DNA of 64,000 nt, taken from positions 352,402-416,401 of the forward strand of contig CAWEEK010000005.1 of assembly GCA_963808065.1 (NCBI GenBank). Reading direction: 5' to 3'. Position numbers and translations under genes: made by a program. This document shows, one piece after another, positions 27,571 to 36,443 of this stretch (position 1 is the stretch's first letter; each line of letters starts with the position of its first letter). The notes below the pieces were generated by a model. That model worked only from the letters and a program-made list of their open reading frames with translations, did not search any database and was not told the origin of the DNA. The DNA is from an uncultured Chitinophagaceae bacterium. Its GTDB lineage: Bacteria > Bacteroidota > Bacteroidia > Chitinophagales > Chitinophagaceae.

Positions 27571-28741
27571 TCAGGCATTTACTGTTTTTTTCACGTATTC
27601 ATTGGCAAGTATCCTGAGGTCCTCTTCCATTACTTCTTTTCTCTGGTCGGCAACTTCAAGAAACCTTGGGTAAAGCACATCGATATCATTTCTGGTGTAT
27701 TCATATCCGAGTTTATGAAAGCGGTGGGCCAGCGCGCTCCTGCCGCTTCTTGCTGTGAGTACGATCTTTGAAAGTTCAGCGCCCACTTCCTCGGGATTGA
27801 TGATCTCATAAGTCAGGGCATCTTTCAAAAACCCGTCCTGGTGAATGCCAGATGAATGTGAGAAGGCATTGGCGCCGACAATGGCTTTGTTCGACTGCAC
27901 CGGCATGCGCATAGTGTCGCTCACCAGCCTGCTCATCGGATTAAGCATTTTTGCATTGATGCCGGTATAGAAACCCATGCTTGTATGTTGCTTAATGATC
28001 ATCACCACTTCTTCCAGTGAAGTATTGCCTGCGCGTTCGCCAAGACCATTGATGGTGCATTCGATCTGCCTTGCTCCATTCATAATACCCGCGATGGAGT
28101 TAGCCGTAGCCAGCCCAAGGTCATTATGACAATGGCAGGAAATCACCGCCTTGTCAATATTCGAAACATTGTTCAACGAGGTAGGCGATTTTTTCACCAT
28201 ATTGATGAGGCAGACAGTAACCGGTGGTGTCGGGAATATTCACCGTCGTCGCTCCCGCAGCGATGACTGCTTCGATCACACTGGCCAGATAATCATTGTC
28301 TGATCTTCCGGCGTCTTCAGCATAGAATTCAACATCATCGGTAAAATTTCTGGCCCATTTGACACATTGCACTGCTCTTTTGAGAATATCCTCACGATTT
28401 GAATTGAATTTGCTTTTGATGTGAAAATCGGAGGTGCCGATTCCGGTATGGATCCGGGGCCGTTTCGCTTTTTTTATGGCTTCTCCGGCCACTTCGATAT
28501 CTTTTTGCACCGCCCGGCTCAACGCACAGACTGATGCTTTGGTGATGATGGCGGAAATTTCCTGAACAGAACTGAAATCTCCCGGGCTGGAAATCGGGAA
28601 ACCCGCTTCAAGTATGTCTACACCCAATTCTTCCAGTCGAAGTGCCAGGTCAATCTTTTCCCGTGTGTTGAGTTTGCAGCCAGGCACCTGTTCGCCATCG
28701 CGAAGGGTGGTGTCGAAAATCAGGATCTTTTTATCTGACAT
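27571..28741 (-). pseudogene. leuA: 2-isopropylmalate synthase with one frameshift near 28154-28200
   Basis: [16 protein letters not shown] lies in fragment 28154-28741 and [13 protein letters not shown] in fragment 27571-28200. The two overlap in different frames. Confidence 0.85.
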
Positions 28742-28929: not shown

Positions 28930-30501
28930 ATGCCCAACAGAACCAGCGAGTCTCTTTTTCAACTGATAAAATCCCTGGAAAAAGCAGAAAAGCGGAATTT
29001 CAAATTGTATGTGAATCGCAATTCAGGAAGTGAGGATCTTAAGATTGTACAGCTATTCGATGCCCTGGATAAAATGCATGAATATGATGAAAATCAGCTA
29101 CTTAAGAACAAAAGCCTGAGAAAACAGCAACTTCCCAACATCCAGTCGCACCTTTACCGTACCATCCTGTCGAGCCTGCGTATCCTTAAAGATACTGATA
29201 ATATCGACCTTCAGCTTCACGAACAGATGGATTATGCCCGGATACTTTACAACAAGGGTCTCTATTTGCAGAGCCTCCGGGTGCTTGACAGAATGAAGGA
29301 ACTGGCCCGTTCAGCAAACCAGTTTAGTTACCTGATGCAGGCCCTCTTTTTTGAGAAGAAAATTGAAAGTCTTCACATCACCCGCAGTATGCAGGACCGC
29401 GCCGAACGGCTGACCCAGGAAGCCGAGCTGGCGAATCAGAAGCTTGTGAGGATCAGCAGGTTATCAAACCTCTCCCTGCTGCTTTATAGTTGGTACATCA
29501 AAAATGGCCATGCCCGCAATGCACAGGACGAAGAGGCGATAAAGACCTTTTTCACGGATCATCTGCCAAAAAATGCCGCCCAGGTCAAGGGGTTTTATGA
29601 AAGACTCTATCTGTATCAGTGTCACTGCTGGTACACGTATATCCGCCAGGACTGGCTCATGTATTACCGCTATACCAGCAAGTGGGTGGATCTGTTCCGC
29701 AATGATGAAGAAATGAAGAGCATCGAGACCGCGCATTTTATCAAGGGAATGCACAATCTCCTTCATGCGCATTTCGGCCTCAAGAACTACGACCGTTTCA
29801 ATGAAACGCTCCAGGAATTCCGGGATTTCGCCGCCTCACCCCTGGGAATGCAGTCGCAGAATAATCGGATCCAAACCTTTGTCTACCTCAACCTCGCGGA
29901 GATCAACAAACACTTCCTGGAAGGTAGTTTCACCGAAGGCCTTGATCTGGCCCGAGAGATCGAAGTCAAACTGGATGAATATGGGCTTTATCTCGACAGG
30001 CACAGGGTGCTGGTATTTCAGTACAAAATCGCCTCCATGTACTTCGGAAGCGGAGACCCGGAAGCAGCCATTGAACACTTAAACACGATTATCAACTGGA
30101 AGGTGGACCTGCGGACGGATCTGCAGTGTTATGCCAGGCTGCTCCACCTCATCTCACACTACGAGTTGGGAAATTTTGAGCTGATGGAATATCTGGCAAA
30201 ATCGGTGTATCGCTTCATGGCCAAAATGGAAAACCTGAGTACTGTTGAAAAATACATACTGGGATTTCTGAGAGGTTCGCTTCGCATGTCAACATCCGAG
30301 GTCAAAGCCGCCTTCCGCGATCTGCTCCACAAATTGAAACAACACGAAAACAATCCGCTCGAAACCCGCGCCTTCAGCTACCTGGATATCGTATCCTGGC
30401 TGGAAAGCAAGATCAGTGGCAGACCCGTGCAAGAGGTGATCAGAAATAAATTTATCCAGGGATATCGTCAGGGGCGTGTGAAGGATCGGGGACATCCCTG
30501 A
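28930..30501 (+). CDS. Hypothetical helical-repeat (TPR-like) protein
   Basis: Intact 523 aa ORF, predicted alpha-helical by eye. I recognise no catalytic motif. Confidence 0.55.
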   Translation: MPNRTSESLFQLIKSLEKAEKRNFKLYVNRNSGSEDLKIVQLFDALDKMHEYDENQLLKNKSLRKQQLPNIQSHLYRTILSSLRILKDTDNIDLQLHEQMDYARILYNKGLYLQSLRVLDRMKELARSANQFSYLMQALFFEKKIESLHITRSMQDRAERLTQEAELANQKLVRISRLSNLSLLLYSWYIKNGHARNAQDEEAIKTFFTDHLPKNAAQVKGFYERLYLYQCHCWYTYIRQDWLMYYRYTSKWVDLFRNDEEMKSIETAHFIKGMHNLLHAHFGLKNYDRFNETLQEFRDFAASPLGMQSQNNRIQTFVYLNLAEINKHFLEGSFTEGLDLAREIEVKLDEYGLYLDRHRVLVFQYKIASMYFGSGDPEAAIEHLNTIINWKVDLRTDLQCYARLLHLISHYELGNFELMEYLAKSVYRFMAKMENLSTVEKYILGFLRGSLRMSTSEVKAAFRDLLHKLKQHENNPLETRAFSYLDIVSWLESKISGRPVQEVIRNKFIQGYRQGRVKDRGHP

Positions 30502-30680: not shown

Positions 30681-32480
30681 TTATACCGCTGGTCTGTAAA
30701 CGAGCTCAGAAATTTTCTGATGCAGGTCTTCGGGACGGAAGGGTTTGTGCACATAATTGACAAACCCTTTGCTCAACAAATCCAACTGCATATTGTCGTA
30801 CACCGCGGCTGTAAATGCCATCGCGGGCACTGAATTATTTATCTTCCGGATCTCTCTGAGTGCAGTGGGGCCGTCCATCTCGGGCATTTCCAGGTCGATC
30901 AGCATCAGGTCGAAATTCCCCTTTGAGAATAATTCAACGGCTTCTTTTCCATTGACCGCTTCCGTAACAGTGATCCCCCATTTAGACATAAACCTTTTGG
31001 CCACTGACAGGTTTACCTTGTTATCCTCGGCAATTAATACCCTCACTCCTTCCAACGGAGAGAGTTGCCTGGTTTTCGCCTCATTGATATATAGCTTCCT
31101 GTCCTGGTTGATCTTCAATTCAATCGTAAAGTAGAATTCACTCCCTTTCCCCTCTACACTTTCAAGCAGCAGTTCGCTGTTGAACATATTGATCAGCTTC
31201 TTGCTGATTGTCAGTCCCAGACCGGTGCCGCCGAATTTGCGCGTGGTGTTGATGTCGGCCTGCGTGAAACTCCTGAAGATCTCAGTATGCTTGTCCGTTG
31301 GAATTCCGATGCCTGTGTCCTTCACCATGATCATTACGGTAGCTATATGGCTTGATGAAAAAACCTGCTTCGCTGTCAAACTGATGCTGCCCCTCTGTGT
31401 GAACTTGATTGCATTCGACAAGAGATTGCTCAGGATCTGATTCAGCCTGGTGTCGTCCATGACCAGTTCATTGTCGAGGTTCGGATCGATTGAAGTTCTG
31501 AAAACGAGGCCCTTTGACTGTATCTGTGGGGAGAACTGGCTGATCATGCTGTTCATGAATTCCATCAGGTTCACGGGACGTTCAACCAGCTCCAGTTTAC
31601 CGGCTTCAATCTTATGATAGTCGAGAATATCATTGATAAGCACCATCATGTGCTCGGATGAAAATTTGAGTATGTCGAGACTCGATTTTTGTTCAGGAAG
31701 GTGATCTTCCTGCAAAAGCAGGTTTGATGCGCCGATGATGCCATTCAGCGGCGTTCTCAGCTCATGGCTCATGTTGGAAAGAAATCTGGATTTTGTGTTG
31801 GATGCAATTTCCGCCTTCTTCTTAGCTTTGAGCAATTCATACTCCGTCATTTTCAGGTTGGAGTTTTCCTGCAGTATCAGGTCTTCATGGTCCTTGTTTA
31901 CCCTGAGTATCGCATAAGAAAATATAAGGGTGAGGCCCATGCCAATGGCGAGGTTGCCCGCATAGAGTTTACCGTACAGAGCCTCGGTGATCACTTCTAT
32001 GTTATTGGTCTCGGGACTGATGTGGAGGCAGACTACAGCAGATACTACCGTGATGGAATAAACGAGTATCCAGCCCTTGAAATGGCTGCCGATGCTTACC
32101 ACAAAGGTCAGTACCAGGAAATAGGGAAAATAATATAGGTAGGCGCCGGCACGGAGTCCTTCCACATAGGAAATGATAATCAAGTAGGCACTTAGGTTCA
32201 GAACCGATATGATCCTGCCCACCTCGAGTTTTTTCCTTGAGTTGAAATAATAGGCAATCAGGAAGAAATAGGCGGAAGTGATATTGATCAACGCGCTGAT
32301 ATACAGACCGTTAACAAAATAAAGCAGTACGGAAAGGAAGTTCATGAACAGCGCCAGGATGACGAACTGGTTGAGTCGGAGGATCTTCTTGCGCTGTTCC
32401 TTGGCGGTAACGCCCTGCAATCCTGAATGAAGTATATCGCGGTAAATTAAGGAGCCGAGATATAATAATTTCTGTTTCAT
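30681..32480 (-). CDS. Hybrid sensor histidine kinase (multi-TM sensor, HisKA, HATPase, receiver)
   Basis: About 6 N-terminal TM helices. H-box FLSNMSHELRTPLNG, N-box LSNLLSNAIKFT, G-boxes VKDTGIGI and GGTGLGLTISKKL. C-terminal receiver VLIAEDN...LMLIDLEMPEMDG. Confidence 0.9.
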   Translation of the reverse strand: MKQKLLYLGSLIYRDILHSGLQGVTAKEQRKKILRLNQFVILALFMNFLSVLLYFVNGLYISALINITSAYFFLIAYYFNSRKKLEVGRIISVLNLSAYLIIISYVEGLRAGAYLYYFPYFLVLTFVVSIGSHFKGWILVYSITVVSAVVCLHISPETNNIEVITEALYGKLYAGNLAIGMGLTLIFSYAILRVNKDHEDLILQENSNLKMTEYELLKAKKKAEIASNTKSRFLSNMSHELRTPLNGIIGASNLLLQEDHLPEQKSSLDILKFSSEHMMVLINDILDYHKIEAGKLELVERPVNLMEFMNSMISQFSPQIQSKGLVFRTSIDPNLDNELVMDDTRLNQILSNLLSNAIKFTQRGSISLTAKQVFSSSHIATVMIMVKDTGIGIPTDKHTEIFRSFTQADINTTRKFGGTGLGLTISKKLINMFNSELLLESVEGKGSEFYFTIELKINQDRKLYINEAKTRQLSPLEGVRVLIAEDNKVNLSVAKRFMSKWGITVTEAVNGKEAVELFSKGNFDLMLIDLEMPEMDGPTALREIRKINNSVPAMAFTAAVYDNMQLDLLSKGFVNYVHKPFRPEDLHQKISELVYRPAV

Positions 32481-32535: not shown

Positions 32536-32940
32536 ATGAATAACGAACCTCAGCCCAAGAAATTCATTTTTGATGATAAAATTGATGAGGAATACATCCG
32601 GAGCCTTTACGAGGATGAATATTCGTACATCACCGAGATCTTTCAGACCACGTTGGAGCATTTTGACGCGGACCTGCAGTTCTTGAGAACGGCCTTCGAG
32701 AAAGAGGATACCTTGGGGTTGAAAAAGGCAGCCCACAAATTGAAACCGGTTTTCGGTTTTACGGGTTTGCTTGGTGTACAGGAAATGTTGAACAACTTTG
32801 AGCAATTTTGTGGTTCGGCCCCGGAGTTTGTACTGGTGAAACCCCACTATGAGAAGGTGATTGCCGAACTATTGAATGCGAAAGCTATAATTGAAAAAGA
32901 ACATCAGCGATTGGCAGCCTATGCTGCCTCACTTATATGA
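32536..32940 (+). CDS. Stand-alone Hpt (histidine phosphotransfer) protein
   Basis: 134 aa helical protein with AAHKLKPVFGFTG (HxxK Hpt-type motif). Its stop overlaps the RR start (ATGA). Confidence 0.7.
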   Translation: MNNEPQPKKFIFDDKIDEEYIRSLYEDEYSYITEIFQTTLEHFDADLQFLRTAFEKEDTLGLKKAAHKLKPVFGFTGLLGVQEMLNNFEQFCGSAPEFVLVKPHYEKVIAELLNAKAIIEKEHQRLAAYAASLI

Positions 32941-33626
32941 GTTTATCCTGCGTCATCATAGAAGATCTGAAGGTCGCCGCCGACTACATCAACAACTGCT
33001 GCAAAAAAAGCGGGCTGGTTGAGGTCAGGGGAATATTTCCCGGAGTTGAGCCCGCACTAAAATTTTTGAATGAGGAAACAGTAGACCTGCTGTTCCTGGA
33101 CGTAGAGATGCCGGGGGCCACAGGTTTTGAACTGCTGGATAATATCGCCTATCAACCCAGCGTGATCCTGACTACGTCCAAAGAAGAGTATGCCTACAGT
33201 GCCTTTCAATATAAGGTGTCGGACTTTCTCAAAAAACCTTTCACCTATCAGCGTTTCCTGGAGGCCCTTGACAAAGTGCTTGAGAAAGAAAGCCGGAAGT
33301 CGGCCACAGAAACCGTTTCACATCTATTTATAAAGTGCGAGGGCAAGCTGGTTAGGCTTGATTACGATGACATCCTCTTTATTGAAAGCATGGGAGACTA
33401 TGTCCGCTTCGTTACGAATGACAAGAAATACATCACACACAATACCCTCAAGAACCTCGAGGAAAAGATAAGCAGTGACCACTTCATGAAGGTCCACCGA
33501 TCTTACATCATCAATCTGCGTAAAATCGACGATATCAGAGAGAATGACCTGTTTATCAAGGGAATAGAGATCCCGATTAGCAAGGCCCACAAGGCCGATA
33601 TCCTCCGGAAGCTGACTATACTTTAG
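32937..33626 (+). CDS. LytTR-family response regulator
   Basis: Receiver (VIIEDL.., LLFLDVEMPG) plus a LytTR DNA-binding domain (LFIESMGDYVRFVT...FMKVHRSYIINLRKI). Confidence 0.9.
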   Translation: MSLSCVIIEDLKVAADYINNCCKKSGLVEVRGIFPGVEPALKFLNEETVDLLFLDVEMPGATGFELLDNIAYQPSVILTTSKEEYAYSAFQYKVSDFLKKPFTYQRFLEALDKVLEKESRKSATETVSHLFIKCEGKLVRLDYDDILFIESMGDYVRFVTNDKKYITHNTLKNLEEKISSDHFMKVHRSYIINLRKIDDIRENDLFIKGIEIPISKAHKADILRKLTIL

Positions 33627-33918
33627 CTCCTTAACAAGACCTTAACGGCATTTTTCATCCATTCATCGAAGCAAAACTATCAACCATCTAATAAAGGTGC
33701 AGGAGGCGATTGCTTTTTACATCTTTGTATCAGCAAGAGAGACGAACGCAAAAGCAGAGAATAACACAGAAAATGAGAACAACAAAAAAGATATTAAAGA
33801 TAGTAACCGAAAGGTTATGATTATTAAACCCTAAACCTGTTTCAGTGATTTTGAAAAGGTTCTGACAGTTGCAGCTCTTTTCATTATGTTGATTTATTAA
33901 GGATTTTCGATTTCGGTG

Positions 33919-33948
33919 CCGGACCCCTTTCCGGGGTTCGGTTTTCTT
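33919..33948 (+). terminator. Plus-strand rho-independent terminator inside module 1
   Basis: CCGGACCCC-TTTCC-GGGGTTCGG (9 bp stem with one G-U pair) followed by TTTTCTT. There is no T-run on the opposite strand. Confidence 0.6.
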
Positions 33949-33983
33949 AAAATCCTGGTCCTTTGTCCAAATCCAATGAATAA

Positions 33984-34157
33984 CCGTCCTGATATCCAAT
34001 GAATACCGTCCTAATATCCAATGTTCGCCGTCCAATTATCCAATGTCACTGTCCTTTTGTCCTATGATCGCCGTCCAATTATCCAATGTTCGCCGTCCAA
34101 TTGTCCAATGTCACCGTCCTTTCATCCTATGATCTCCGTCCGTTTATCCAATGAAGA
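33984..34157. repeat. Tandem array of eight 21-22 bp units, consensus CCGTCCnnnTATCCAATGnnnn
   Basis: Units start at 33984, 34006, 34028, 34050, 34071, 34093, 34115 and 34136. A degenerate unit precedes at about 33955. A higher-order 43-44 bp alternation is also visible. Confidence 0.9.
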
Positions 34158-34306
34158 CCATCCAGTTATCCAATCCATGAATTGACCATCCGATCCGAAC
34201 CTTTGAAAAAGCCAGTTATCCAGTCTTAAGAAAAACCAACCCGACGACCGTATCAAGAACTTAATCTCCTTGAGAAAAACCATCTGTTATTAAGGTGAAA
34301 ATTATC

Positions 34307-34336
34307 AAAAAAGCCGCGTCCACTGCGGCTTTTCTT
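34307..34336. terminator. Hairpin terminator copy 1 (A-run, GCCGC-loop-GCGGC, T-run)
   Basis: AAAAAAGCCGCGTCCACTGCGGCTTTTCT. The sequence is symmetric enough to act on either strand. Confidence 0.55.
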
Positions 34337-34349
34337 GTTTTTGGGAGCC

Positions 34350-34389
34350 AGAGAAGAGAAAGAGAAAGAGGAAGAGAAAGAGGGAAAGT
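34350..34389. repeat. 40 nt pure polypurine (GA) tract in the spacer between modules 1 and 2
   Basis: AGAGAAGAGAAAGAGAAAGAGGAAGAGAAAGAGGGAAAG, with more GA-rich sequence continuing to about 34415. Confidence 0.85.
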
Positions 34390-34460
34390 ATGAAAGGCAG
34401 AGAGAGAAAGAGAACTATGTTAATAATGAAGCGGACATGGATTCTAACCCATCAACAACG

Positions 34461-34910
34461 CTTTAACGGCATTTTTCGTCCATTCATCGAAGCAAAGCGA
34501 TCAATCACCTAATAAAGGTGCAGAAGGCGAATGCTTTTTACATCTTTGTATCAGCAAGAAAGACGAACAGAAAAGCAGAGAATAACACAGAAGCACCATC
34601 CTAGTATCCAATGAATTCCGTCCTGATATCCAATGAACGCCGTCCAGTTATCCAATCCATGAAATGACCATTTCGATCCGAACCTTTGAAAAAGCCAGTT
34701 ATCCAATCCATGAATTGACCATCCGATCCGAACCTTTGAAAAAACCAGTTATCCAATCCATGAATTGACCATCCGATCCGAACCTTTGAAAAAACCAAGA
34801 ATCCAATCTTAAGAAAAACCAACCCGACGACCGTATCAAGAACTTATTCTCCTTGAGTTGTTATTAAGGTGAAACTTATTAAAAAAGCCGCGTCCACTGC
34901 GGCTTTTCTC
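34461..34910. repeat. Non-coding repeat module 2: H2, two 22 bp units, three 50 bp units, tail and hairpin
   Basis: 22 bp units at 34596 and 34618. 50 bp units at 34644, 34695 and 34745. Hairpin at 34881-34910. Confidence 0.9.
34644..34794. repeat. Three tandem copies of the 50 bp unit CCAGTTATCCAATCCATGAATTGACCATCCGATCCGAACCTTTGAAAAAA
   Basis: Near-identical copies. The first is 51 nt and carries 2 substitutions. Confidence 0.95.
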
Positions 34911-35000
34911 ATTTTAGGGAACTACAGAGTATTCGGTTTCCGGAGTATTTTGGCATGGTGGCCTCGAGATTGGGATCTCTACCCTCTTGATAACAGCTTG

Positions 35001-35062
35001 TTCCCTCACTCGCTCCCCCTCTTTCTCTTTCTCTTTCTGTTTCTCTTTCTGTTTCTCTCACC
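35001..35062. repeat. Polypyrimidine (CT) tract in the spacer between modules 2 and 3, in inverted orientation relative to 34350-34389
   Basis: TTCCCTCACTCGCTCCCCCTCTTTCTCTTTCTCTTTCTGTTTCTCTTTCTGTTTCTCTCACC. Confidence 0.85.
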
Positions 35063-35269
35063 AAACCTTTATCGGCATTTTTCATCCATTCATCGAAGTA
35101 AAGCGATCAATCACCTAATAAAGGTGCAGAAGGCGAATGCTTTTTACATCTTTGTATCAGCAAGAAAGACGAACAGAAAAGCAGAGAATAACACAGAAGC
35201 AACGTCCTAATATCCAATGTCACCGTCCTTTTATCCTATGATCGCCGTCCCTTATCCAATGAAGACCGT

Positions 35270-35469
35270 CCAGTTATCCAATCCATGAATTGACCATCCG
35301 ATCCGAACCTTTGAAAAAACCAGTTATCCAATCCATGAAATGACCATCCGATCCAGACCTTTGAAAAAACCAGTTATCCAATCCATGAATTGACCATCCG
35401 ATCCGAACCTTTGAAAAAACCAGTTATCCAATCCATGAATTGACCATCCGATCCGAACCTTTGAAAAAA
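35270..35469. repeat. Four tandem copies of the same 50 bp unit
   Basis: Exact 50 bp periodicity. Copy 2 differs at 2 positions. Confidence 0.95.
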
Positions 35470-35568
35470 CCAAGAATCCAATCTTAAGAAAATCCGACCC
35501 GACGACCGTATCAAGAACTTATTCTCTCCTTCGAGAAAAAACCATCTGTTATTAAGGTGAAACTTATC

Positions 35569-35605
35569 AAAAAAGCCGCGTTCTACTGCGGCTTTTCTTT
35601 TTTTT
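35569..35605. terminator. Hairpin terminator copy 3. On the minus strand it lies about 27 nt after the stop of the ferritin-like gene.
   Basis: AAAAAAGCCGCGTTCTACTGCGGCTTTTCTTTTTTTT. The minus strand reads hairpin plus TTTTTTGATAAG. Confidence 0.7.
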
Positions 35606-35624
35606 AGGGAACTATCGTAAATAC

Positions 35625-36443
35625 TTACACAGCGAAGAACGGAGTCACAATGGCGATGACCTCGTCAAAACTCAAAGGTTCATCAAATGCCTCTGATGCC
35701 GCGCTGTCCGAAATACCGGAATTGCCAATATTAGTTATGGTCACATTTGCCTGAGTGGTGGCTTCTTCCCCATCGTAGCTGGCCTGCACTGCCGCGCCGA
35801 TACCGCTGTCACTACCCGTGATCCAGGGTTTTACACTGGCTCCTCTTCCCTTGCGAATCTGACGGATATGCGAAGCATGTCTGGCTTCCACCGAATGTAT
35901 ACTGAGTGCGGCGAGCAGCACCTCATTGCTTGCCATCAAGGAGCCCGCCTGACCTTTATATGCCCTCACACCAGTGTCTTCAAAGGTCTGCGCTACAGCA
36001 AGGAAAGTATCGTAGTTCGTAAACACGTCGGGGAAGGTCCCTGCGGCGGTGAAGTCAAATTCGGGGGAATCAACGGGCGTACCACCCGCCGCCGAGATCG
36101 CGGCTTTGATATAGTTCACGTGTGCGGTTTCATGTCCGCTAATGACAGTGAGGGCGGCTTGGTCATCCTCTGCAATAAGGTCCGGAGTGGCAAGCCCTTT
36201 TTCATAAAATGCGGCTTCGAGGTATTCAAGTTTGAGTGCGAAGTTCAGTATGTCGATTGCATTGGTCGGCGTCTGTCCATAAGTTTTTTGCATCATGGTG
36301 CCCAGCGCTATCGGCATGGCAGCCACGCTCACCTTGCCGGCGAAGCGGGTGAAATTTCTGATCACTTCCCTTCGACCATTCAGTTTTTCATAGACCTCGG
36401 GTTCTGACTTTTCTATCTGGTTAAATATATTCTGGAGATTCAT
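35625..36443 (-). CDS. Ferritin-like domain protein (secreted, desiccation-protein-like family)
   Basis: 272 aa with paired ExxH-type helices (LEYLEAAFY, HETAHVNY, SVEARHASHI). Paralogous to the upstream gene. Confidence 0.7.
   Translation of the reverse strand: MNLQNIFNQIEKSEPEVYEKLNGRREVIRNFTRFAGKVSVAAMPIALGTMMQKTYGQTPTNAIDILNFALKLEYLEAAFYEKGLATPDLIAEDDQAALTVISGHETAHVNYIKAAISAAGGTPVDSPEFDFTAAGTFPDVFTNYDTFLAVAQTFEDTGVRAYKGQAGSLMASNEVLLAALSIHSVEARHASHIRQIRKGRGASVKPWITGSDSGIGAAVQASYDGEEATTQANVTITNIGNSGISDSAASEAFDEPLSFDEVIAIVTPFFAV

Follow-up and report, generated by a model that had tools for sequence, protein, structure and literature searches.

In the AgrA-RNAIII system of Staphylococcus aureus and the VirR-VR-RNA system of Clostridium perfringens, a LytTR-type response regulator directly activates a regulatory RNA gene, and direct-repeat boxes about 21 bp apart lie immediately before the promoter of this adjacent non-coding RNA. 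A comparable arrangement, read from sequence alone, is found in a 64,000-nucleotide stretch of DNA from an uncultured Chitinophagaceae bacterium (the window), where a LytTR regulator gene is followed by three tandem modules carrying arrays of 22-bp and 50-bp units. Unlike these two systems, the locus belongs to the Bacteroidota, has another type of promoter and shows three boxes instead of two; the box consensus is tCCATTCATCGAA, which is closer to CCGTTCGTC of AlgR. The input is a hybrid kinase with a separate Hpt protein, not a peptide quorum-sensing kinase, and the RNAs are unrelated to RNAIII and VR-RNA, G-poor and predicted to be unstructured.

A second likeness is to GacS/GacA-RsmX/Y/Z, BarA/UvrY-CsrB/C and CbrA/CbrB-CrcZ, in which small RNA genes, often several of them, each carry many copies of a short motif, the phosphorelay sensor has an Hpt step, and the number of motifs varies with paralogue and species. 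In the present case the motif is AUCC..UGAA rather than GGA or a CA-rich sequence, it would lie in unstructured G-poor RNA and not in hairpin loops, the regulator is of the LytTR type, and sequestration of a partner is suggested by analogy.

The DNA sites of LytTR proteins are imperfect direct repeats of 8-13 bp with a spacer of about 12 bp, hence about 21 bp from centre to centre (PMC4064291, PMC6193735); AlgR has the consensus CCGTTCGTC (PMC4064291). Known operators consist of two (sometimes three) repeats located 4-11 bp upstream of the -35 element (PMC6193735). The canonical examples (AgrA P2/P3, ComE, PlnC/D, VirR, HdrR/BrsR) share the 21-22 bp spacing with the boxes in the module leaders and, formally, with the 22-bp array. 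The array differs from them in having 8-9 repeats, in following a promoter and a terminator, and in lacking the CG that is invariant in the regulator's own boxes. Bacterial intergenic minisatellites (variable-number tandem repeats) also consist of head-to-tail units of 15-50 bp with higher-order periodicity and copy-number differences between strains, but the units described here contain two constant blocks, which match a motif that the homologous RNA has kept in other genera.

We propose, with a probability of about 0.6, that the arrays result from recent tandem amplification of a motif-bearing segment inside non-coding RNA genes controlled by the regulator, and that they act at the RNA level as a multivalent platform. 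This kind of system, in which a two-component system drives small RNA genes with repeated motifs, is already known. Neither the two RNA families nor the three-box operator seem to have been described before, and we found no described LytTR-controlled small RNA in Bacteroidetes or Chitinophagaceae in the literature. The locus comprises the following features.

30681..32480, minus strand: hybrid histidine kinase, encoded divergently from the Hpt and regulator genes, with Pfam HisKA, HATPase_c and receiver domains.
32536..32940, plus strand: small Hpt phosphotransfer protein (Pfam PF01627); its stop overlaps the regulator start.
32937..33626, plus strand: response regulator with receiver and LytTR DNA-binding domains (Pfam PF00072, PF04397).
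33646..33727, plus strand: putative operator-promoter 1; box 1 with its CG at 33646, box 2 (CATCCATTCATCGAAGC) with its CG at 33667, box 3 (CTAATAAA) at 33688, and a -7-like ATCTTTG at 33721-33727.
33735..33950 (5' end approximate), plus strand: predicted sRNA1-type unit, ending in a hairpin (33918-33942) followed by UUUUCUU.
33971..34174, plus strand: 22-bp array 1, with eight full units at 33984-34157 and degenerate flanking units; the sRNA1 hairpin lies before it, the module-1 tail with its terminator after it.
34162..34225, plus strand: 50-bp unit of module 1, 1.3 copies, CCAGTTATCCAATCCATGAATTGACCATCCGATCCGAACCTTTGAAAAAG.
34226..34345, plus strand: module-1 tail, with the sRNA2 signature AATCTCCTTGAGAAAAACC at 34263-34281 and a predicted terminator at 34309-34345.
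34467..34548, plus strand: putative operator-promoter 2; box 2 is CGTCCATTCATCGAAGC.
34596..34661, plus strand: 22-bp array 2, two units and a hybrid unit continuous with the first 50-bp unit.
34644..34808, plus strand: 50-bp array 2, 3.3 copies, 93% matches.
34809..34915, plus strand: module-2 tail and predicted terminator (34883-34915).
35073..35154, plus strand: putative operator-promoter 3; box 2 is CATCCATTCATCGAAGT, with the top weight-matrix score in the window.
35202..35287, plus strand: 22-bp array 3, three units and a hybrid unit.
35270..35483, plus strand: 50-bp array 3, 4.3 copies, 94% matches.
35484..35605, plus strand: module-3 tail and predicted terminator (35571-35605), the latter common to a convergent ferritin-like gene ending at 35625.

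All three modules are built alike, from a leader, 22-bp units, 50-bp units, a conserved tail marked by AATCTCCTTGAGAAAAACC or a variant, and a hairpin with a T-run. The leaders are about 140 bp long and 91-98% identical to each other, and modules 1, 2 and 3 hold respectively 8, 2-3 and 3 of the 22-bp units and 1.3, 3.3 and 4.3 of the 50-bp units. Module 1 has an additional 210 bp between leader and array, which end in the terminator-like hairpin at 33918-33942.

An earlier note on this DNA had described eight consecutive units of 21-22 bp at 33984-34157, each with two conserved blocks, together with two shorter arrays of the same unit, and this description holds. When the sequence is split in register the units start at 33984, 34006, 34028, 34049/50, 34071, 34093, 34114/15 and 34136, with lengths of 22, 22, 21, 22, 22, 21, 22 and 22 bp. 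Tandem Repeats Finder likewise gives a period of 22 for 33971-34174 (9.3 copies, 76% matches), with an additional higher-order period of 65 bp corresponding to three units (84% matches), which points to recent block duplications. The unit is composed of CCGTCC, a spacer of 3-4 nt, (T)ATCCAATG and a second spacer of 3-4 nt, so that the conserved blocks measure 6 and 8 bp; as RNA it reads CCGUCC..UAUCCAAUGAA... Mismatches per column per unit amount to 0.044 in the blocks and 0.41 in the spacers, a comparison that is indicative only, the units being non-independent copies. The pattern CCGTCC-N4-ATCCAATG, with up to two mismatches, matches 15 times in the window against 0.62 +/- 0.75 times in shuffled sequence, and 15 matches are reached in 0 of 100 shuffles; 14 of the 15 fall inside the three arrays, and all are on the plus strand. 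The shorter arrays are real and extend over 34596-34661 and 35202-35287. The 50-bp unit does open with CCAGTTAT, as had been reported, and as RNA it contains four AUCC plus UUUGAAAAAACC.

The comparison drew on 48 loci of Chitinophagaceae that have in common the genes for the hybrid kinase, the Hpt protein and the LytTR regulator (cited by L numbers where needed). Their 48 regulator orthologues show 64-98% identity and come from genera including Flavitalea, Niastella, Paraflavitalea, Pseudobacter, Longitalea and Pseudoflavitalea. Synteny with the hybrid kinase gene is kept, and the Hpt gene lies upstream of the regulator gene in nearly all. Nearly all of these loci also have 0.5-2.2 kb of G-poor non-coding DNA 3' of the regulator gene, with a convergent next gene in most. 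Synteny ends there, because the convergent neighbour in most other genomes is a different gene of 467 codons. One to four promoters are present in the gap at each locus, ending in (g)cATCTTTGT or ACCTTTGT; this ending resembles the Bacteroidetes -7 element TAnnTTTG. In every genome a terminator is located +160 to +215 nt after the P1-type promoters and +235 to +350 nt after the P2-type promoters. The terminator stems differ in sequence yet stay paired, with compensatory changes in four of five predicted pairs. From this we infer that P1 and P2 each head a non-coding unit bounded by a predicted terminator, sRNA1 of about 200 nt and sRNA2 of about 300 nt.

The unit sRNA1 is conserved directly after the regulator gene (window 33735-33950, L005 6790-6992, L035 6790-6997, and about 35 other loci), its conserved blocks being TGCGACGGTTATC, TGAAATCCGTAC and GGATTTCA. 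It accounts for the extra 210 bp of the window's first module, of which L001, L005, L047, L003 and L002 hold the homologous stretch. The module tails are homologous to the 3' parts of sRNA2. In the clade formed by the window and these five loci no P2 promoter was seen after hairpin 1; at the place of the window's arrays L005, L047, L003 and L002 carry single-copy sequence such as CCGTACCCATATCCAAT...AAATCCATGAAAAC...AATCTCCTCGAG. Several tandem copies of the RNA genes are also present elsewhere, L023 (7239-8726) and L048 (7158-8461) having three P2-sRNA2 genes each and L028 (6783-8106) two P1 and one P2, which makes amplification at the level of the gene a recurrent event in the family.

What was amplified in the window can be recognised from 34 sRNA2 genes of other genomes. 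In these, ATCC is the most over-represented tetranucleotide (221 observed against 50.5 expected, or 6.5 per RNA), with a density of 2.17 per 100 nt against a background of 0.45, and its reverse complement GGAT occurs at 0.1 per RNA. The preferred context is ATCC-A-A-T. The pattern ATCC-N0-4-[TA][GA]AA occurs 96 times versus 7.5 +/- 2.5 in shuffles (13-fold), and CCGT-N3-9-ATCC 15 times versus 0.7, the latter never in sRNA1; one example from L018, CCGTCCAACTATCC, is almost identical to the 22-bp unit of the window. Modules 1, 2 and 3 contain 14, 15 and 21 ATCC (50 in all) and no GGAT. On these statistics the amplified element is the composite CCGU..AUCC(A/U)..UGAA(AA)CC, present in several copies in the G-poor sRNA2. 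As its composite forms are enriched in the sRNA2 of other genomes, the 22-nt and 50-nt units would be a regularised and multiplied version of a family element. The regularity itself is peculiar to the arrays: motif spacing in the other sRNA2 is irregular, with no peak at 21-22 nt. The RNA of module 2 is predicted to fold no better than shuffled sequence (z = +1.19), and with the accessibility so predicted the locus has the property typical of CsrB, RsmZ and CrcZ, a motif exposed in many copies on one strand. The minus strand, which offers GGA-like motifs (CATTGGATAATTGGACGG), was considered as the functional strand and rejected, since the promoters, the T-runs after every module and the orientation of the regulator gene all indicate the plus strand; GGAT is nearly absent from the plus strand of sRNA2 in other genomes because ATCC is the conserved orientation.

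The promoters of the comparison set are each preceded by three direct-repeat boxes. In order, these are TTCATCGaa, tCCATTCAyCGr and CTAAwAAA in the P1 type and AATCGAAG, TTAGTCGAA and CGAATAAA in the P2 type. Box 3 lies 21 bp from box 2 in 80 of 82 promoters and box 2 lies 21 bp from box 1 in 63 of 71, so that the two-turn phasing of LytTR sites invoked in the earlier note is indeed that of the inferred boxes of this regulator; box 3 sits 33 bp upstream of the ATCTTTG element. The CG dinucleotide is present at 82 of 82 box-2 positions and 71 of 82 box-1 positions. The consensus, CCrTTCryCG, is near that of AlgR, and the AlgR and VirR consensuses cited in the earlier note proved roughly right (CCGTTCGTC and CCAnTT-N15-CCAGTT-N3-Cac). 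With a box weight matrix trained on the other genomes alone, the window and L001 being left out, box 2 of the three window leaders takes ranks 1-3 among 128,000 window positions, scoring 15.5-16.9 bits; the next position scores 12.0. Shuffled sequence never yields the full composite operator-promoter pattern, of which the window has exactly three instances (33646, 34467 and 35073); about 48 genomes keep the pattern downstream of the regulator gene. Direct repeats of about 21 bp that abut a promoter and are conserved beside orthologous regulators are what is expected of a LytTR operator, and the three-box sites upstream of the three promoters are thus the putative operator of this regulator.

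The earlier note had proposed such a role for the 22-bp array instead, as a DNA platform bound cooperatively by the LytTR regulator at units two helical turns apart, or as a decoy that titrates it. We consider this rather improbable, and the array is probably not the DNA operator of the regulator. The equality between the 21-22 bp period, the 21-bp operator spacing and the published LytTR spacing is a point in its favour, one that amplification of an RNA motif leaves unaccounted for. The array does have the repeat geometry of LytTR sites, but it has neither the box consensus nor the conservation at orthologous loci. Every unit carries ATCC where the boxes carry ATCG, a CC thus replacing the invariant CG. 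On the full matrix the best unit reaches 7.2 bits and a typical one about 5, below the 99.9th percentile of the background (7.5). Leaving out the CG columns gives units whose spacer is AATT or GTTT a score of 8.9-9.3 bits, which exceeds the 75th percentile for true boxes (P of about 6e-5 per position in the background); six of 13 units have a CG in spacer 2 and score 5.4-7.2, and CCAATT and CCAGTT recur in 22-bp steps, as in the VirR motif. These box-like features lie partly in the variable spacers, however, and are missing from the units with TGAT and TAAT. Some units are box-2-like outside the CG and 23% of true boxes do not exceed the 7.2 bits of the best unit, so that weak binding of the regulator to the arrays is possible.

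Position and distribution bear on the same question. That the array adjoins a LytTR gene is correct in so far as it belongs to the regulator's locus and, in the public collections scanned, such arrays were found only beside this regulator gene, which also suits a platform or decoy. It does not directly follow the gene: from the regulator stop codon (33626) to the array there are 358 bp containing a promoter, a conserved unit of about 200 nt and a terminator-like hairpin. Array 1 is situated 260-440 bp downstream of promoter 1, past that hairpin, and not upstream of a promoter; no conserved -7 motif follows it, and the 50-bp units, the tail and the terminator come next. The expectation that orthologous regulators would be followed by arrays of the same period was not borne out, 46 of the 48 loci being without them and the arrays that these loci do have being unrelated, with periods of 14-102 bp. 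One unit in L001 is 19 bp long and out of phase, and the 50-bp arrays (4.8 helical turns) hold the same ATCC motif without the phasing, both of which argue against a DNA platform.

A related idea, that the arrays are amplified remnants of a decayed second operator, may apply to some stretches, but homology to the body of sRNA2 is better supported. Two copies of TCCAAT in L005 are 21 nt apart, which bears on this idea; in other genomes the surroundings of ATCC do not look like boxes (mean score -3.8, against +3.8 for boxes).

The chief rival to an RNA-level platform is that the arrays are a neutral minisatellite, functionless products of slippage tolerated in a permissive 3' part of the small RNA gene; we judge this unlikely, though less so than a DNA platform. 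A pattern with 20 specified bases was searched for in about 186,000 species-representative genomes, and the units were found in one other, a metagenome-assembled genome (L001), at the same locus. They are also present in three metagenome contigs with regulators that are 98% identical, all within a single species-level lineage, and are absent from the rest of the 64-kb window and from the rest of the species representative genome. Among these alleles there are two or three modules and 5.7-10.3 copies in array 1; with such differences between strains the locus behaves as a variable-number repeat, as a neutral minisatellite would. Unrelated arrays with periods of 14-102 bp occupy the gap downstream of the regulator gene in 19 loci and are found throughout intergenic DNA, periods of 21-22 bp occur far from the regulator gene as well, and the 65-bp structure in array 1, with its recent block duplications, and the rearrangement scars nearby (inverted microsatellites, and a piece of the regulator gene's 3' end in inverse orientation) fit the same explanation. 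Against it, variation is concentrated in the spacers: CCGTCC and ATCCAATG hardly change in the window and L001, and L180 and L183 have kept both blocks. The amplified element is the very motif that characterises sRNA2 in distant genera, and the same two types of unit were expanded independently in two or three modules.

The rearrangements are seen at several places. Between modules 2 and 3, at 34914-35007 on the minus strand, there is a 97-nt inverted copy of the regulator 3' end, 72% identical to 33538-33634 (E = 6e-8). The second leader of the metagenome contig L180 comes after a piece of coding sequence for residues 152-228 of the regulator. Both fragments are scars of the duplications that produced the extra modules. 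An (AGAGAA)n tract at 34350-34414 and a (CTCTTT)n tract at 35019-35058 form an inverted pair flanking module 2 (31 nt, 94% complementary).

Membership of another class of repeat is very improbable. Iterons of plasmids such as R6K, pSC101 and RK2 typically have a 22-bp period and 7-9 direct repeats, much as array 1 does. The context here is chromosomal, however, with a leuC-type gene of the aconitase family, a leuA-like HMGL gene, the two-component system, ferritin-like genes and a decarboxylase gene, and there is no rep or par gene within +/-8 kb. The units abut without spacers and no cas gene is present, unlike in a CRISPR-like array, and their confinement to this locus is at odds with dispersed repetitive extragenic palindromes or miniature inverted-repeat transposable elements. 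Neither period, 22 or 50, is divisible by 3, so that the arrays are non-coding and not a repetitive coding sequence.

The RNA units themselves were compared with known families and examined for peptides. Neither the window nor six related loci gave an Rfam 15 match at the gathering score, and at E values up to 10 the region 33500-35700 yielded chance matches to terminator-like models only. No conserved reading frame was found in sRNA1 or sRNA2. A 15-codon open reading frame (ORF) at 33774 in sRNA1 was rejected as a small peptide gene, as its ATG is missing in L005 and L047 and three of three changes relative to L001 alter the amino acid. A peptide spanning the most conserved block of sRNA2, AATCTCCTCGAG, was likewise discarded, the frame of the block differing between L035 and L043.

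Some complementarities are also seen in these RNAs. Within sRNA1, TGAAATCC is complementary to GGATTTCA, with which it could form a long-range helix. The 3' arm of the sRNA1 hairpin with its U-run (GGGTTCGGTTTTCTTAAAAT, 33934-33953) matches, at 80-85% of 20 nt, the complement of ATCTTAAGAAAAACCAACCC, which lies in the tails of the sRNA2 type (34806-34825 and 35481-35500). AAAACC occurs 86 times in sRNA2 against 9 expected; it is complementary to the 3' ends of the terminators (GGUUUU), and pairing between sRNA1 and sRNA2 is possible.

Under the RNA-level explanation that we favour, the phosphorylated regulator would activate the three promoters. Sequence of the sRNA2 type is present in three places, of which one lies behind sRNA1 and the other two each have a separate copy of the operator-promoter; slippage would have expanded the composite element into regular 22-nt and 50-nt arrays. 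The unstructured RNAs, with the motif displayed many times over, would then titrate complementary RNAs or a factor that binds single-stranded RNA, as CsrB/RsmZ or CrcZ do. More tentatively, sRNA2 and its expanded copies may be the Bacteroidota counterpart of CsrB, RsmZ and CrcZ. By that analogy, G-poor RNAs induced by a phosphorelay and bearing 5-20 AUCC..UGAA elements would sequester a single-strand RNA-binding regulator, for instance of the RRM-1 family, with a capacity that duplications in tandem, of the motif as well as of entire genes, would tune within short evolutionary spans. RRM-1 proteins are candidate RNA-binding partners, and the Bacteroides RRM-1 protein RbpB bound a probe with three copies of GUAGGAUA (bioRxiv 10.1101/2021.04.27.441718). 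The complement of the RbpB probe, UAUCCUAC, resembles UAUCCUAUG and UAUCCAAUG of the array, which may be coincidence.

Several points weigh against an RNA platform. The anatomy of promoter and terminator is conserved for modules 2 and 3 and for the sRNA2 of other genomes; the promoters, start sites and terminators are predicted from consensus and conservation. Array 1 has no recognisable promoter of its own and comes after the terminator-like hairpin of sRNA1, so that read-through of this hairpin would be needed for its transcription. Five of the 34 sRNA2 genes (those of the group formed by L012, L018, L021 and L025) have only 1-3 ATCC, and multivalency is therefore not universal. Since tandem arrays are common in the intergenic DNA of the family, the expansion could be neutral, and, as set out above, some units resemble an operator box outside the CG. 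Finally, a survey of genomes of gut Bacteroidetes (bioRxiv 10.1101/2021.04.27.441718) detected none of the canonical sponge partners CsrA, Hfq and ProQ.

As to the genes around the RNA locus, the nearest NCBIfam models of the hybrid kinase are of the TorS, LuxQ and BarA types and those of the LytTR regulator are BtsR and LytR, all below cutoff. Adjoining the kinase gene is one for a 523-aa protein (28930-30501, plus strand), which has no Pfam match, is conserved in the window's clade only and gives a sub-threshold match to the NCBIfam BT2802 family (ribose-utilisation protein). An HMGL-like gene, for a synthase of the 2-isopropylmalate or homocitrate type, is broken up into two ORFs that overlap (27571-28200 and 28154-28741, minus strand) and cover profile positions 2-184 and 183-260, owing to a frameshift or a sequencing error. 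On the other side two tandem ferritin-like genes (PF13668; 35625-36443 and 36453-37202, minus strand) are convergent with the RNA locus.

The locus is a reminder that a two-turn periodicity beside a LytTR gene is insufficient to call an operator; without a comparison of genomes the putative operator would not have been recognisable here. A global sponge RNA that acts with a protein partner has yet to be described in the Bacteroidota. The locus is conserved in at least six genera of the Chitinophagaceae and combines one phosphorelay input, a defined putative operator and two undescribed RNA families, and its natural alleles differ several-fold in the number of motifs. It makes testable what the targets of LytTR regulators are in the Bacteroidota and whether multivalent small RNAs operate in this phylum.

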